A stretch of 64,000 bases of DNA. It comes from an uncultured bacterium (GTDB lineage: Bacteria > Babelota > Babeliae > Babelales > JABCYS01). The DNA lies in contig CAVPKK010000007.1 in the NCBI GenBank assembly GCA_963705705.1, forward strand, positions 96,001 through 160,000. Reading direction: 5' to 3'. The position numbers are program-made. Position 1 is the first letter of the stretch; each line of letters opens with the position of its first letter. Positions 33,001-39,000 of this stretch are shown one piece after another.

Positions 33001-36000
33001 AACATACATCTCCCGCCGAGGGCGTGTTAACGGCGAATTCAATCCATCAGGATGCTCGGAAGCTTGACGACTTATTAATGATAGGTTCATCGGTAAAGAA
33101 ATAAACAAAATGAGTTTTATGTAATTTTTCATTTTTGGTACAAAAAAACCGCCATCCGAAGACAGCGGTCCTAAAATTTATAACTTAAATAAATTATTTT
33201 GAAGCTACTGCTACGCGGTGAGCCAGGCGGCCGATGCGGCGGGTAGCATTGCGCGGGTGCAATAGTTTTTTATTCTTTGCGCGCGCAAGTTGTGCTTCAG
33301 CATCACGCATTAAGCTTTGTGCTGCGGTAAAATCTTTTTTATCCAACGCATCCATTACTTTACGGATGGAAGTCTTAACCGCAGATTTGCGCGCGGTGTT
33401 AATCGAGCGACGGGTAACATTTTTACGAGCTTGTTTTTTTGACGAGGCTAAATTTGCCATGTTGATTATCCTGCTTGAGTCTTACCAGAAAGAACCTTTT
33501 GGACCTTGCCGGCTTTTACGCACTTAGTGCAAACAGCACCACGGTGCACTTTGTTTTCTTTGCCGGGAAGGGTATAGCGCATCGAATGGGTATTTGGATA
33601 AATCCAACGTTTTACCCTGTTGTTTGCATGGCTGACATAGTTGCCAACCGTTGGTCCTTTATCACAGATGTTACAAATGCGAGCCATGAGATTCCTTGTT
33701 ATTACTTAATAATGAGCTGACATCTTACTTAAATATCAGCTTTTTTCAATCAATTACGATAGTTTGAACTGCTCACGAGGGGTAATACCGAGTAACTCGT
33801 ATATTTCCCCAGCGTAAAGGGTTTCTTTTTCCAAGAGTCTTTTGGCCAATACATCAAGCTTATCGCGGTTTGTATGCAATAGATCCTTAGCGCGATCATA
33901 GCACTGGTTAGTAATGCTACGGATCTCCTCATCAATCAGCTGGATAGTATGTTGTGAGAGGTAGCGGAAGTCTGAATATGATACCAGGCCAAGTTTTTCC
34001 GACATCCCATAGTTCACTACCATGTTACGAGCCACCGAAGTAGCTGCTTGGAAGTCACTTGCCGCACCCGTTTCAAGGCGCTTAAATACCAGCTCTTCCG
34101 CGGCACGACCGCCAAGGGCAGAAGCTATGCTAGCGAGCATATGCTCTTTATCCCTGGTATATGATTCCTTTTCCGGCAATGAGTGGGTAACACCCAGGGC
34201 TCGGCCACGCGGAATAATGGTAATTTTATACAGCGGATCTGAATGCTGAGGCAATAGAAGACGAACTAAGGCATGGCCCGCTTCATGGTATGCCGTCACT
34301 TCAAGCTCTTCTTTGGTGAGTATCTTAGATTTACTCTCTTTACCCAAGAGAATCCTATCGCGTGATTCTTCAAAATCAGACAACGTTGCCATATCTTTAT
34401 CAAGCTTGGATGCATTGATCACCGCTTCATTGATCAGGTTTGCAAGGTCAGCACCGGTAAATCCAGGAGTACCGCGCGCCATCGCATCGAAATCGATTGT
34501 CGGATCAATCTTCTTGTTTCGAGCATGCAACTCTAGAATCTGCTTACGAGAAATATAGTCCGGATACGGCACTTCAACTTGGCGATCGAAACGGCCAGGA
34601 CGAAGTAACGCCTTATCCAATACTTCTGGGCGGTTTGTTGCACCCATAATAATAATTGGTCCGGCGGTCATGGTATCAAAGCCATCAAGCTCGGTGAGTA
34701 ATTGGTTCAGGGTTTGAGAATGTTCTTGAGATCCACCACCCTCATACATACGTTTGCTTCCGATCGCATCAATTTCATCCATAAAGATGATGGCTGGCGC
34801 ATGACGCCGAGCGGTGACAAAGAGCTCACGAACGCGGGCTGCACCCACCCCAACGTATTTTTCTACAAATTCGGAACCACTGGCGTGGAAGAACGGCACG
34901 TTCGCTTCGCCAGCAACGGCTTTAGCTAATAAGGTTTTACCATTGCCCGGTTCACCGGTAAGCAATACACCTTTTGGCATCTGCGCGCCAAGCCGCTTAT
35001 ATTTCTCTGGGTTTTTCAAGAAATCAACGACGTCATGCAACTCTTCCTTAGCCTCGGTTGCACCGGCCACGGCATTAAAGTTCAATTTCATTTGCGCCGG
35101 CATGAGCATCTTTGGCGTATAAACGCTCTTTTCTGCAGATGTCTTGGTGCCATCGGTTGCATGTGATTGCAGGATATTTTTGTGCGCTTCTTCAAAATCT
35201 TCTTGCGTTACGGCCGAACGATTTGCTTTGGAGGCATTAATTGCCGCAATATTAACCAAATTGGCTAGATCACTACCACTAAAGCCAGCGGTAACTGCTG
35301 CCATTTTGCCTAGGTCAACTTCAGGATCAAGCATAATTGATGCAGCATGGATCCAAAGAATTTGTTCACGATCTTTAAGATCTGGAAACGGAACGGTTAC
35401 TCGTCGATCGAAACGACCAGGGCGGAGCAATGCTTTATCAAGCACATCCGGCATATTGGTAGCGGCAAGCACAATCAATGGTGGTGCCTCGCCGGTTTCA
35501 AAGCCATCCATTTCCGTCAAAAGTTGGTTTAGGGTTTGCTCACGTTCATCATGGCCACCGCCAAGACCACTGCCGCGCATGCGACCAATGGCATCAATTT
35601 CATCAATAAAGATTATGGCAGGAGCATATTTGCGTGCTTGAGCAAAGAGGTCGCGAACGCGAGATGCGCCAACGCCAACGAATACTTCTATAAAGTCGGA
35701 GCCTGTAATACTAAAGAAAGGAACCCCAGCTTCGCCGGCTACTGCCTTTGCCATGAGGGTTTTGCCGTTGCCCGGCTCCCCTACTAATAGTACGCCACGG
35801 GTAACCTTAGCTCCAAGGCGTCGGTATTTTTCAGGGTTTTTAAGATAATCGACCACATCCTTGAGCTGCTCTTTTGCCTCGCTTGCGCCGGCAATATCGC
35901 CAAATTTGGTCTTGATGGTGTGGGGCATAAAGATACGAGCTCGGCTTTTGCCCATGGAGAAAATAGTGCCGCCGCCACCGCCTGAATTGCGGGACTGGCG

Positions 36001-39000
36001 ATAGAGGAATATGCCTATGCTTATCATTGCCAATAGGGAGAATAGACCGCCTAATACCAGGCCGAGGCTCCATTGGGCGGCAGGAGAGCCAATATTTACT
36101 TCAACATTGTTGGTTTTGAAGAAATCCCAGTCGTGATAGCCTTCGGGCAATAGGGTCTCGAAATGTTCCCCGGTAGTGAGCTGGCCCCATACATCCTGGC
36201 CGGCTACCCTGATAGTCTTAATTTCGTGTTGCTCTACCTTTTTCAAGAAACTGGTATAGCTGAGCTGTTTGACCTGTGTTATTGATTCATTCAGCTTAAC
36301 AACAGCCAGTAGACCGACCATCATTAGGCCGATTATCAAGAGTAAGTTTCGTGGCGCGCCTTGGAAGAATGGTGGGCGTTTCGCTCGCTTTTTCATCTTT
36401 TGTACCTCATTTATATATTCTTTAGGAAGGTAAAGTATAGTACAATCTGGCAATCTTATAAACTGGTTGGACAAGCTTTGGCCACGGCCTAACCCTGGAT
36501 ACCCATGGATCCAAACCCACTCAATACCCGGCAAAAAGGCGCAATTGGCGAACAGATCGTAGCCGACTGGCTGCAAGCCAAAGGGTTCAAGATCTTGGAT
36601 ATGAACTTCAATTGTAGAACCGGCGAACTTGATATTGTAGCCATAAAAGATGACCTGGTGGCCATGGTTGAAGTAAAATCCCGGGAAGAAGTGACTGCCC
36701 TACTAGCCGACTTGGTTCCCTGGCGGAAACAACAACGCATCATAAGCGCCGCTCGGTTTTGGTTAGCCAAAAACCAAATCGGGGATCGATCAATTCGCTT
36801 TGATGTTGCGATTGTTGAAGGCGACCTCCTAAAACAGTATATTCCTAATGCTTTTGCGCCGGACTATTAAATCAAATCAAAATTGACGGACTTCTGCATC
36901 TGAAAATGACTTAGAACGCGCTCATCCTGAGTTTATCGAAGGATCGTAGCGCGAATAAAATATCGAATTCGAGATGATCCAATTAATTTGCTAAAATCAA
37001 TTAAAACAATTAGTAGGACCAATTAGGACTAAACAATGTCAGATCAAACAACAACAGTTGCTGAGTTAAAAGAAAAATTCAAAAAATTCGTCGATGAGCG
37101 CGATTGGAATCAATTCCATACGCCCAAAAATCTAAGTATGGGGCTTTCGTGCGAAGCGGCTGAGCTCATGGAACATTTTCTCTGGATTACGGATGAAGAA
37201 TCAAAAAATGTATTAGAGAAAAAGAGAGTTGAGATTGAGCATGAGTTGGCCGATGTTGTAATTTATGCCTTAGCATTTAGCAATCAAAGCAATATCGATT
37301 TATCGTCAGCGATTGATCGCAAACTCCAGCACAATGCAGAAAAATATCCGGTAGAAAAAAGCAAAGGCCGATCTACCAAATATACTGAGCTGTAATAATG
37401 CCGCGAGTACGCCTTTTTATTGCTATTGATGTGCCACCAGAAATCTGCCAACAGCTTGCACAGATTCAAGAGCAGATTAAACAGAGCAATATTATTGAAG
37501 GATCGTTCGCTCGCCCGGAGCAACTGCATGTGACGCTCAAATTTATTGGTGAAGCGGATGAAAATTTAGTCCCTGAAATCGTATCGCGATTGAACACAAT
37601 CACCCTGCCGTCGTTCACTACAGAGTTAAATAAACTTGGTTATTTTGTAACCCGCCACCGCGAGCCGATCCTTTGGGTTTCGCTCGAACCAAGTCAGATG
37701 CCAGTATTAGCTCAATACATCGAAAATGCACTGGCAGATATACTCCCCCGAACCACGCAAGCATTTGCAAATCATGTCACCTTAGTACGCGCAAAAAGAA
37801 TAATAGACCAAGATAAGTTCACTGATTTTGTGCGGGATTTTAAAATCGGACCGCAGATTCCATTCTGGGTCACCGAATTTGTGCTGAAATCTTCTATTAC
37901 GTATGCCGCAGGCGCTGAACATACCATAATTGAACGCTTTTCGCTGAACGTTTAATCATTTAAAACATAATCATCCAGAATCACATCACGCAGCTCCAAT
38001 AATATCTTGATATTGTTGATCTATACATACTAGAATAAACAGTGGCACAAGCATCATAGTCAAACATTGGATTTGGATGGATCAGTTAACAAAATTCTTA
38101 GCTTCACTTGCTGCGCTAGCAGGTGCCGGTAGCTATCAGCCTTTACCACCGGTAGGTAGCCAAGCTGGAGGTCAGCCAGTAGCTCCGCGCGTTTGCACAA
38201 CTGGATATGTCACAGATATATATGGCCGTTCTGGTGATGTTATTGATAATTTGGGCATGAAATGCAGTGATGGTACTGACTTAGGTACGATCGGGGGTGC
38301 TGGCGGAAACCCGTTTGCTATTCGAAATGCTGATGGCTTTTCAACTATTAACGTGCTGCCCGGCAACACTATGCTTAACCGAAATTCTTATGCATATACG
38401 TTACATCAAATAGCAGCCATTGCCGATGACGATACTACTATTAGGACTGGAAACAACCCAGCGCCGGGGCAAATTCTGACGTGCCCGTCAGGACAGAAGA
38501 TTGTGGGTTTTGCCGGTCGGAGCAGACAATATGTAGATTCACTTACAGTCCTCTGCGGCCATAGATTTGCCCGACGCCCTGCCTTCGATCAATCAGCACT
38601 ATTAAAAGCTTCATATGGGATCGGCTACCTCAAAAAAAATGTGTTAGGGATCATACGCCGTAGCATTGGAACTAGTTTCATAGTAAATGATCAATTATTC
38701 CAAGGTGATCCCGCACCTGGTCTCATAAAAGAACTATCAATTACCTATCTCGATGCTTCGGGCCAACAAAAAACTGCTACCTTTCAAGAAGGTCGTTTGA
38801 TTGCACTGAGTTCGCTGCATTCCCTAGATACTCAATCGGCGCCATTGGATGAGCGCGCGATCAAAAATAATGCTGAGAATCCAATGCCGGCATATAACTA
38901 CACAAAAGATGCTTATACAATCCAAGTCCGCCCAAATGAAATTAAATTTATAAGAAATAATGAACCTCCCATCCTAAAAGGCTCACCAGAGTTTGCTGAT

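Follow-up and report, generated by a model that had tools for sequence, protein, structure and literature searches.

The membrane AAA+ protease FtsH is universal, and the structural and mechanistic literature examined treats it as a type I motor with a single ring. A gene of an uncultured Babelota bacterium (genome G000) raises the question of whether the enzyme can carry two rings. The gene lies in a window of 64,000 nucleotides from contig CAVPKK010000007.1, and its product consists of two membrane helices, a first AAA module (D1), a linker, a second AAA module (D2) and a single M41 protease domain with the HEAGH site.

The ftsH gene and its product

The initial annotation had placed an FtsH of 880 residues at 33754..36396, and the translation agrees with it (Table 1). 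The longest open frame begins at a TTG at 36576 and would specify 940 residues, but the ATG is preferred because 29 orthologues begin there in the alignment and because a promoter-like site lies at 36462-36434. Ten such sites were found versus 6.3 expected in shuffled sequences. RNA runs covering the stretch were looked for, and none was listed. The product is the housekeeping FtsH of G000, a membrane quality-control protease. It scores 1112 bits against the NCBIfam FtsH model (TIGR01241, cut-off 600), which places the whole protein in that family, and 435.9 bits against the CDC48 model (TIGR01243), which is below the cut-off of 802.65 and leaves it outside CDC48/VAT. Two N-terminal transmembrane helices (residues 13-39 and 107-133) flank a periplasmic domain, as is characteristic of FtsH; the match to FtsH_ext at residues 20-81 is weak (22 bits, under the 25.5 cut-off). 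Pfam recovers AAA twice (284.7 bits over two stretches, the best at 477-611), AAA_lid_3 twice and Peptidase_M41 (PF01434) once, at 692-867 (198.2 bits).

Table 1. Positions of ftsH features in the window, in order of transcription
Feature	Window position	Strand	Evidence or remark
Sigma-70-like promoter match, TTTATA-17-TATACT	36434..36462	-	38 nt upstream of the ftsH ATG; weak evidence only
ftsH CDS	33754..36396	-	880 codons plus stop (stop codon 33754-33756); stop-free translation; TIGR01241, 1112 bits
Transmembrane helix 1 (residues 13-39)	36280..36360	-	Kyte-Doolittle window of 19, mean >1.6
Short periplasmic domain (residues 40-106)	36079..36279	-	Between the hydrophobic segments; FtsH_ext below cut-off
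Transmembrane helix 2 (residues 107-133)	35998..36078	-	Hydrophobic segment, Kyte-Doolittle
Gly-rich tether, membrane to D1 (residues 134-152)	35941..35997	-	QSRNSGGGGG...; 18-24 aa in 30 orthologues
AAA module D1 (residues 153-410)	35167..35940	-	Pfam, BLASTP, motifs; all catalytic residues kept in 30/30 orthologues
D1-D2 linker (residues 411-427; ~17-18 aa)	35116..35166	-	Sequence variable, length conserved
AAA module D2 (residues 428-685)	34342..35115	-	Pfam, BLASTP, motifs
M41 zinc metalloprotease domain (residues 686-880)	33757..34341	-	PF01434, 198.2 bits

Walker A reads GEPGNGKT in both modules (206-213 in D1, 481-488 in D2), the two copies being 275 residues apart. Walker B is IIFIDEID in D1 (261-268) and IIFMDEID in D2 (536-543), and RPGRFDR occurs at 325 and 599. 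D1 further contains pore-1 FVG (239-241), pore-2 ([13 protein letters not shown] 297-299), sensor-1 N314, the Arg fingers R325/R328 and a lid (339-410). Its counterparts in D2 are pore-1 YVG (514-516), a degenerate pore-2, DGF at 571-573, sensor-1 N588, the Arg fingers R599/R602 and a lid (613-685) that ends in the hinge residue G685. HEAGH occupies residues 704-708 (window 34273-34287); H704, E705 and H708 of this HEXXH site are kept in 30/30 orthologues, as is D781, which we take to be a candidate third zinc ligand. Pfam, BLASTP and the motif positions thus uphold the claim of two complete, motif-bearing AAA modules. Their tandem arrangement in one chain, each with nucleotide-binding motifs, is that of a type II enzyme and departs from the single module per protomer of canonical FtsH.

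Only one other FtsH-like gene was found in G000, a paralogue on contig C6 with HLAGQ instead of HEAGH. Loss of HEXXH, the feature of FtsHi and pseudo-proteases, is present in this paralogue and absent from the 880-residue protein, which is the sole FtsH of G000 with an intact protease site and in this sense the only complete one, as had been claimed. No further match above 35% identity was found in G005, G109, G010, G100 or G198. Lon is the only other ATP-dependent protease found in G000, and ClpP gave no strong match (>100 bits) there. Among 261 Babelota genomes, Lon is present in 260 and strong ClpP matches (>100 bits) in just three. No selective advantage that would account for a second ring was identified: ClpP absence and Lon presence are alike in double-form and single-form genomes.

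Predicted ring architecture

Conservation was compared across 30 orthologues. The Walker A Lys and Thr, the Walker B Asp-Glu, the sensor-1 Asn, both Arg fingers and DGF are kept in both modules in all 30. Pore-1 is aromatic throughout (F in 29 and Y in one for D1; Y in 26 and F in four for D2). Mean pairwise identity is 0.697 for D1, 0.662 for D2, 0.548 for M41 and 0.201 for the linker; divided by subdomain, it is 0.777 and 0.490 for the large subdomain and lid of D1 and 0.703 and 0.559 for those of D2. The linker is rich in S/A/G/T/K and measures 17-21 residues in 29 of the 30. The ftsH gene is under purifying selection; dN against a same-genus orthologue is 0.044 in D1 and 0.068 in D2, with dS saturated.

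Judged by their motifs, the two modules have diverged asymmetrically. The canonical FtsH pore-loop half is found in D1, with F in pore-1 and an intact pore-2 ([10 protein letters not shown]), and D2 retains the lid and hinge predicted to dock on the protease. All of the single-module FtsHs tested are D1-like in their N-terminal half and D2-like in their C-terminal half. Because D1 keeps the pore loops and D2 the protease-docking elements, a division of labor can be proposed, and the analogy with ClpA suggests that D1, as the entry ring, would engage the substrate and that D2 would be the protease-coupled ring. Given its degenerate pore-2, D2 may grip substrate differently or more poorly.

The double-module layout probably gives a two-storey motor. 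We think it likely that the 880-residue FtsH is a stacked two-ring (type II-like) membrane protease in which both rings hydrolyze ATP and labor is divided between them. The hexamer would assemble via the M41 ring and have three tiers below the membrane: a ring of six D1 modules, then a stacked ring of six D2 modules, and lowest the protease chamber. A substrate tail would pass through the D1 pore and then the D2 pore before cleavage in the M41 chamber, with ATP hydrolyzed in both rings. We infer hexamer stacking, the ATPase activity of both rings and the division of labor, and the double-ring assembly itself from the motifs and from colinearity with VAT/Cdc48. The p97 D1-D2 linker is given as 22 residues (PMC4730245, in excerpt), and the FtsH linker is close to it in length. 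The VAT chains 5vc7 and 5g4g each yield one colinear alignment to residues 162-673, covering D1, linker and D2, and the D1-D2 spacing resembles that of known stacked enzymes.

Intact motifs alone do not imply hydrolysis; p97 D1 keeps its motifs, yet hydrolyzes ATP slowly. A rival reading is that the rings stack with only one as a real motor, while ATP binding by the other serves chiefly in hexamer stability or regulation, as reported for p97 D1 or NSF D2. Functionally, this would make the enzyme a normal FtsH with an extra assembly or gating ring. We regard this as unlikely. It would accommodate the degenerate pore-2 of D2 next to the canonical loop of D1 and the D1 lid, which is the most diverged subdomain, and unequal rings are frequent in type II AAA+ enzymes, D2 being the stronger ATPase in ClpA (PMC8666677, in excerpt). 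However, a purely structural ring would be expected, somewhere among the eight families, to have lost at least its pore-1 aromatic or its catalytic Glu, whereas these residues, the sensor-1 Asn and both Arg fingers show no or almost no variation in either ring across all 30 orthologues, and both large subdomains are better conserved than the protease domain.

It is quite improbable that the modules are unstacked. Three protomers could supply six modules to a planar pseudo-hexameric ring, or D1 could be a flexible, separate unfoldase arm beside an otherwise normal D2-M41 hexamer, and the flexible linker of ~18 residues is long enough for covalent linkage of neighboring subunits, as in ClpX engineering. 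The planar ring would bring only three M41 domains to a chamber that is six-fold in the solved FtsH, AFG3L2 and YME1 listed (six chains per entry), and it is incompatible with the three- and four-module forms described below. The D1-linker-D2 spacing, moreover, is colinear with that of VAT, a stacked type II enzyme.

Age and distribution of the duplication

The tandem duplication takes in the whole AAA module, beginning with the strand that precedes the F-x-x-V-A-G motif and finishing where the lid ends. BLASTP aligns residues 153-424 with 425-699 at 159/256 identities (62%, E = 1e-117). Across 257 codons the DNA of the copies shows 61.2% identity, with a longest identical run of 14 nt and no conversion tract. 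Protein identity of 62% with DNA identity of only 61% marks the duplication as old and excludes an assembly artefact, in agreement with the initial annotation. Identity between D1 and D2 inside each protein is 55-70% across the 30 orthologues. Although the source is a metagenome-type assembly and the Logan contigs matching ftsH are short, none crossing the whole linker, there is practically no chance that the gene is decaying or is an artefact of assembly or annotation, given 45 intact orthologues in other genomes, conserved motifs, the D1-D2 divergence in DNA, low dN in both modules and an open frame with a conserved start.

The double-module layout is, by these sequence comparisons, old and conserved. 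Near-full-length copies are present in 47 of the 261 Babelota genomes, with five more partial or broken, and all fall within one of two major clades in a Lon-based tree. The survey confirms that the 880-950-residue form extends to other Babelota families and that most of the phylum keeps the ordinary single-module enzyme (~610 residues in most genomes). One reported case did not survive: a 1194-residue frame with both halves (G042 here, G008 in the initial annotation) resolves into two distinct genes, whose frames (617 and 536 residues) are separated by seven stop codons. The double-module ftsH of G000 has the same genomic neighborhood as the single-module ftsH of its relatives.

Several duplications or losses had been considered possible before any tree was built. 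In our trees D1 forms one exclusive clade (22/22; bootstrap 99, SH-aLRT 95), which argues for a single origin of the double form. Monophyly of D2 is weak, with 21/22 together in free trees (bootstrap 80, SH-aLRT 66) and one copy, L006_D2, placed among the single-module enzymes. AU tests rejected neither a clade of D2 plus four look-alike singles (p = 0.60) nor a clade of D1 plus D2 (p = 0.63), and a single duplication is thus not rejected. The trees indicate one duplication, in the ancestor of one major Babelota clade.

Multi-module FtsH is not unique to Babelota. Proteins with two, three or four AAA modules occur in Muribaculaceae, including the cultured Sodaliphilus pleomorphus (WP_423828368.1, 1462 aa), and in Actinomycetota; examples include MAG proteins of Muribaculaceae, Acidimicrobiales and Thermoleophilaceae. 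Databases annotate them merely as FtsH or AAA family ATPase. Modules within one protein are usually mutual nearest relatives, and these duplications are accordingly independent. On balance, and by a small degree, we favor the view that multi-storey FtsH, with two to four stacked AAA rings and one M41 chamber per membrane-anchored chain, evolved about a dozen separate times, the two-ring enzyme having taken over as sole protease-intact FtsH in one Babelota clade.

Implications and comparison with known systems

No published description of an FtsH with two intact AAA modules was found in the literature searched. The earlier statement that the architecture is not known for FtsH stands as far as descriptions in print are concerned; it is qualified by partial precedents (PMC7159879 and PMC9421593, both in excerpt) and by the multi-module proteins of other phyla. 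Whether weak unfolding is intrinsic to FtsH is an open question (PMC9601784), on which a double-ring sole FtsH bears. A conserved two-ring form would permit direct tests of what a second ring contributes, be it grip, unfolding force, processivity or gating, and comparison, on one scaffold, with the single-ring sister enzymes of close relatives. The three- and four-module relatives in cultured S. pleomorphus put the wider phenomenon within experimental reach. If multi-storey FtsH did evolve repeatedly in this way, FtsH would be the first AAA+ protease family with ring number as an evolvable trait, and would offer a live view of type II AAA+ enzymes (e.g., Cdc48) arising from type I ancestors. 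Because the duplication can be placed relative to family divergences and the copies have diverged asymmetrically, it is a natural example of the passage from type I to type II.

The closest known systems include canonical bacterial FtsH and the mitochondrial m- and i-AAA proteases (MEROPS M41; solved, e.g., as 7vhp, 2dhr, 2ce7, 6nyy and 6az0), which share the two N-terminal helices, a classic-clade AAA module with SRH and the HEXXH M41 domain; E. coli FtsH (7vhp) is the best PDB match. The solved chains listed have one module and at most 644 residues, whereas the Babelota protein has two modules, and its Walker A sequence, GEPGNGKT, also differs. The multi-module proteins of other phyla resemble it in their membrane/FtsH_ext N-terminus, repeated FtsH-type AAA modules and one HEAGH protease, but have three or four modules and shorter or different linkers. 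VAT and Cdc48/p97 likewise join same-clade AAA modules in tandem through a linker of ~20 residues; the Babelota enzyme, however, lacks their N-domain, is anchored in the membrane and has a covalently attached protease. In trees its modules fall with those of FtsH, and its duplication is independent of that in Cdc48.

ClpAP and ClpCP also feed a protease chamber from a double-ring unfoldase, and in ClpA substrate is engaged by the D1 pore loops and unfolded by those of D2 (PMC8666677, in excerpt). The Clp rings, in contrast, come from different AAA+ clades, and the peptidase is not fused to them. Two FtsH-type AAA domains per protein are described for the MoxR-vWA "FtsH ternary" conflict systems, where the N-terminal copy has no P-loop or Walker B (Kaur et al., 2020, PMC7159879, in excerpt). 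D1 of the Babelota enzyme instead keeps both in 30/30 orthologues and is not such a dead copy. The five ftsH neighbor genes scanned (one without a Pfam family, UPF0102, MazG-like, inositol monophosphatase and PBP) gave no MoxR or vWA family match. The plastid proteins Orf2971/Ycf2 and FtsHi are likewise FtsH-derived, and Orf2971 is said to contain two AAA+ ATPase domains (PMC9421593, in excerpt); in these proteins the M41 domain is missing or its active site lost, whereas the protease site of the Babelota enzyme is intact.

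The double ftsH gene and its two AAA modules

The ftsH gene of this Babelota genome (G000) encodes an 880-residue protein with two AAA modules, termed D1 and D2, followed by a single M41 protease domain. A longer frame opens at TTG 36576, but the ATG was favored as the start because its position coincides with the start of 29 orthologues, which share a similar basic N-terminal stretch (mostly MK), and because a promoter-like site lies 38 nt upstream. Pfam recognized two AAA, two AAA_lid_3, and one Peptidase_M41 domain. The NCBIfam FtsH model (TIGR01241) scored 1112 bits against a cut-off of 600; the CDC48 model fell below its own cut-off. 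Hydrophobic segments at residues 13–39 and 107–133 (TM1 and TM2) enclose a 67-residue periplasmic domain and are followed by a Gly-rich tether leading into D1. Two divergent genes lie upstream of ftsH, and their order is also kept in the same-genus genome.

Locations of ftsH, its modules, neighboring genes, and other loci discussed
Feature	Location	Strand	Description
ftsH	window 33754–36396	-	open frame, 880 codons
D1	residues 153–410		first AAA module
Linker	residues 411–427		
D2	residues 428–685		second AAA module
M41	residues 686–880		protease domain, HEAGH at 704
UPF0102/YraN-type gene	window 36505–36870	+	nuclease fold, upstream of ftsH
MazG-like gene	window 37036–37395	+	pyrophosphohydrolase, upstream of ftsH
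357-aa gene	window 32059–33132	-	downstream of ftsH, without any Pfam family match
L136 (1–2544)	G000 C6:73416–75959	+	FtsH-like, ~847 aa
L137 (1–3657)	G000 C9:16414–20070	-	multi-AAA protein, 1218 aa
AAA protein near L137	G000 C9:11895–12905		337-aa frame
L048 (1–4601)	G042:C1:362000–366600		two tandem ftsH-type genes
L047	G108:C1:208500–211700		tandem-AAA FtsH-like, 764 aa
L045	G061:C1:831000–834500		tandem-AAA FtsH-like, 889 aa
L046	G079:C8:67500–70900		tandem-AAA FtsH-like, 796 aa
Broken double copy	G096:C7:71679–73283		match with in-frame stops

The initial annotation had described tandem AAA modules produced by a duplication that was not an assembly artefact, and the comparison of the two copies bears this out. 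Residues 153–424 and 425–699 align with 159 identities in 256 columns (E = 1e-117). At the DNA level the copies are only 61.2% identical, with a longest identical run of 14 nt, and among the codons of the 159 identical residues 44% share their third base, versus 26% expected from composition. This divergence rules out both an assembly artefact and recent gene conversion between D1 and D2; the duplication is genuine and ancient. Where short Logan contigs of soil metagenomes cover ftsH they are identical to it, but none spans the whole linker, which leaves this comparison with little weight. No RNA run was among those listed as containing the stretch.

Conservation was assessed in an alignment of the protein with 29 orthologues from other genomes (n = 30). 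The Walker A Lys/Thr, the Walker B Asp-Glu, the sensor-1 Asn, both SRH arginines, the DGF motif, and an aromatic pore-1 residue are kept by D1 and D2 alike in 30/30. The pore-1 residue is Phe in 29 and Tyr in 1 of the D1 modules, and Tyr in 26 and Phe in 4 of the D2 modules. HEXXH and D781 are invariant. D1 and D2 both appear capable of catalysis. Averaged over sequence pairs, identity is 0.697 in D1, 0.662 in D2, 0.548 in M41, 0.395 in the N-terminus, and 0.201 in the linker, which is 17–21 residues long in 29/30, variable in sequence, and rich in Ser, Ala, Gly, Thr, and Lys. In the comparison with the same-genus orthologue, which is 91% identical, dS is saturated and dN amounts to 0.044 in D1 and 0.068 in D2. 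The double FtsH is evidently conserved and under strong purifying selection.

Distribution and history in Babelota

When 261 Babelota genomes, which all belong to one order, were searched in six frames, near-full-length double matches (query about 1–880, in a single frame of 858–954 aa) were recovered in 47, of which 45 are stop-free. Identity to the query is 54–62%, or 91% in the same genus. By family, the matches number 2/4 in f1, 19/41 in f2, 1/8 in f8, 8/10 in f11, 5/5 in f13, 2/2 in f16, 5/8 in f19, and 5/80 in f21; the remaining genomes have one-module frames of about 600–690 aa. The double form is found in a minority of Babelota species, in line with the initial annotation, which had placed it in other families of the phylum and called the single form commoner; eight families carry it. 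Five further double copies are partial or broken (G175, G098, G009, G041, whose copy is divided between two contigs, and G096). The last, from an f11 genome, has 22 in-frame stops (8 TGA, 4 TAG, and 10 TAA); the Lon match of G096 is also unusually weak (3e-53), and the genome may be decaying or poorly binned. Of the 120 best clusters in a 5.8-billion-protein collection, about 85 were doubles of 846–920 aa; those with names carry just the label 'ATP-dependent zinc metalloprotease FtsH' and are assigned to Candidatus Babeliaceae, Babeliales, or Dependentiae. Ten further double-form clusters that were looked up have no recorded name.

Coexistence of FtsH forms in one genome is rare but seen: G008 (7% contamination) has the double together with a 684-aa single-type FtsH, and extra shorter AAA-M41 paralogues occur in G016, G120, and G121. 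Among other tandem-AAA FtsH-like frames, L047 has one N-terminal hydrophobic segment and stands beside a normal double, L045 is without HEXXH, and L046 has HEGGH and is without a membrane segment.

In a module tree (PMSF, 78 modules), all 22 D1 modules form one exclusive clade (SH-aLRT 97 in a quick tree; bootstrap 99 and SH-aLRT 95 in a careful tree). D2 modules (21/22) share a cluster with one f5 single and with four single-module paralogues whose N-termini are unusual (support 80/66); the D2 of locus L006 was placed among singles in the careful tree. A clade of D2 plus the four paralogues was not rejected by the AU test (p = 0.60), and its log-likelihood exceeded that of the free quick tree by 8.05 units; nor was a clade of D1, D2, and the four (p = 0.63; 8.57 units better). 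Given the exclusive D1 clade and these tests, a single tandem duplication is the simplest reading. The double gene could also have been born by fusion of adjacent ftsH paralogues; G042 carries two tandem ftsH genes. These were previously described as a 1194-aa frame containing both halves, which proved to be two genes of 617 and 536 aa in the same strand and reading frame (L048), with seven stop codons in between. However, the module of the second G042 gene lies far from D2 in the tree and the AU test allows D1 and D2 as sisters, which leaves fusion a minor possibility.

The initial annotation had also allowed for several duplications or losses; a single duplication accounts most simply for the origin, and repeated change remains in the later history. 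A Lon tree of 40 genomes (20 double-form, 20 single-form), used as a proxy for the species tree, has two major clades (split SH-aLRT 100). Clade A is 8/8 single, and all doubles fall in clade B (20 doubles, 12 singles), where f11, f13, and f16 form an all-double clade (support 98). Eight switches between forms are needed on this tree, at least four of them forced by well-supported branches. The full-length FtsH tree mostly tracks families (f11 + f13 at 99, f19 at 100), but in conflict with this G121 (f16) groups with G005 (f2) at 96, and forcing f16 to join f11 + f13 gave an AU p of 0.045. The switches may have come about by loss of a module, by sorting among paralogues present side by side, or by transfer of a replacement gene.

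Genomic locus and protease complement

The single ftsH genes of G085 (same family) and G011 are flanked by homologues of two G000 genes, an inositol-monophosphatase-family gene and a PBP transpeptidase gene, that lie within 7.5 kb of the double ftsH. The lon–ftsH distance is 18–34 kb in double-form G110, G107, G105, G103, G100, G198, G020, and G002 and likewise in single-form G085, G184, G013, and G046. The two forms appear to occupy the same locus.

The only other FtsH-like gene of G000, L136, combines a long N-terminal region with a single AAA module (GPTRTGKT, IVFIDELD) and closes with an M41-like part where HLAGQ stands in the place of HEAGH; by its motifs it is a protease-dead, FtsHi-like paralogue. 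No second FtsH-like match above 35% identity was found in G005, G109, G010, G100, or G198. Strong matches to ClpP (PF00574; >100 bits) occur in 3/261 Babelota genomes and not in G000, the remaining 48 matches scoring 18–35 bits. All genomes but one have Lon (260/261), and the phylum appears to depend on Lon and FtsH. Given the HLAGQ paralogue, the absence of ClpP, and the presence of Lon, no ATP-dependent protease other than Lon and the double FtsH was found in G000, in a search that did not extend to HslUV. The idea that the second ring compensates for lost proteases finds no support, as the ClpP/Lon pattern is equal in double- and single-form genomes. G000 also encodes L137, in which Pfam recognizes four AAA stretches behind a signal-like N-terminus and which lies in a cluster with another AAA protein; this multi-AAA protein may be secreted or of the effector type.

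Module asymmetry and comparison with other enzymes

D1 and D2 have diverged unequally. The canonical pore-2 loop is kept in D1 and degenerate in D2. The large subdomain is 0.777 identical in D1 and 0.703 in D2, and conservation is lowest in the D1 lid (0.490; D2 lid 0.559; n = 30). The Gly hinge joining the protease, G685, is present in 30/30. In every single-module Babelota FtsH tested, the N half is closer to D1 (72–80%) than to D2 (65–72%), and the C half is closer to D2 (60–64%) than to D1 (51–58%). Judged by the pore-2 loop, the lids, and this half-by-half resemblance, D1 has retained the substrate-facing half of the ancestral module, and D2 the lid and Gly hinge. Singles as D1/D2 recombinants derived from doubles were rejected: clade-A singles, which on the Lon tree lie outside the clade that contains every double, have the same pattern, which points to asymmetric divergence rather than chimeras, and the nearest relative of a single is never the double of its own family. 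Strict criteria yielded one D1/D2 diagnostic column and relaxed criteria ten, mostly ancestral states.

Multi-module FtsH proteins also occur beyond Babelota. In a 1.84-billion-protein search, 27 of the best 150 representatives by score had at least two full FtsH-type modules, a count that is not a frequency because score ranking enriches for multi-module proteins. Among named examples, cultured Sodaliphilus pleomorphus (Muribaculaceae) has a four-module FtsH of 1462 aa (WP_423828368.1), three-module FtsH proteins of 1193 aa share their cluster with a fragment labelled Muribaculaceae, and Acidimicrobiales and Thermoleophilaceae (Actinomycetota) have three-module forms. One four-module cluster counts 1047 member sequences. 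Proteins P0305, P0172, P0224, P0205, and P0152 combine three or four AAA modules in tandem with a single HEAGH domain. When 267 modules were placed in one tree, those of one protein were usually mutual nearest relatives, which implies about a dozen independent duplications. A related-loci search of genome contigs returned only ordinary single FtsH of other phyla, and a protein atlas search only ordinary FtsH clusters. In line with the initial annotation, which knew of no FtsH of this architecture, the full-text literature searched (subscription journals and supplements outside scope) did not describe any FtsH that joins an M41 domain to two or more AAA modules and yielded no paper on the three- and four-module forms of Muribaculaceae and Actinomycetota; the word FtsH was absent from the Dependentiae genome papers found.

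The double FtsH is well supported in sequence; a stacked two-ring hexamer is what we infer from it. VAT, an archaeal type II enzyme, aligns to residues 162–673 in a single colinear stretch, and the linker is close in length to the 22-residue D1–D2 linker given for p97 (PMC4730245). Together with the intact motifs, these features suggest a hexamer with the D1 ring stacked on the D2 ring and that on the M41 ring, through which substrate would be threaded by way of D1 and then D2 into the protease. ClpA, whose D1 pore loops engage and D2 pore loops unfold substrate (PMC8666677), offers an analogy: D1 would be the entry ring, its pore loops engaging substrate, and D2 the protease-coupled ring, its pore loops unfolding it; this assignment fits the asymmetry of the modules. 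The second ring could add grip or force, which bears on the unsettled question of how strongly FtsH unfolds its substrates (PMC9601784). Solved FtsH, AFG3L2, and YME1 chains in the PDB have one AAA module each and at most 644 residues, whereas the double FtsH has two modules. Its nearest published parallels are proteins of MoxR-vWA conflict systems with two FtsH-type AAA domains, the first inactive (PMC7159879), and the FtsH-derived Orf2971 with two AAA+ domains (PMC9421593).
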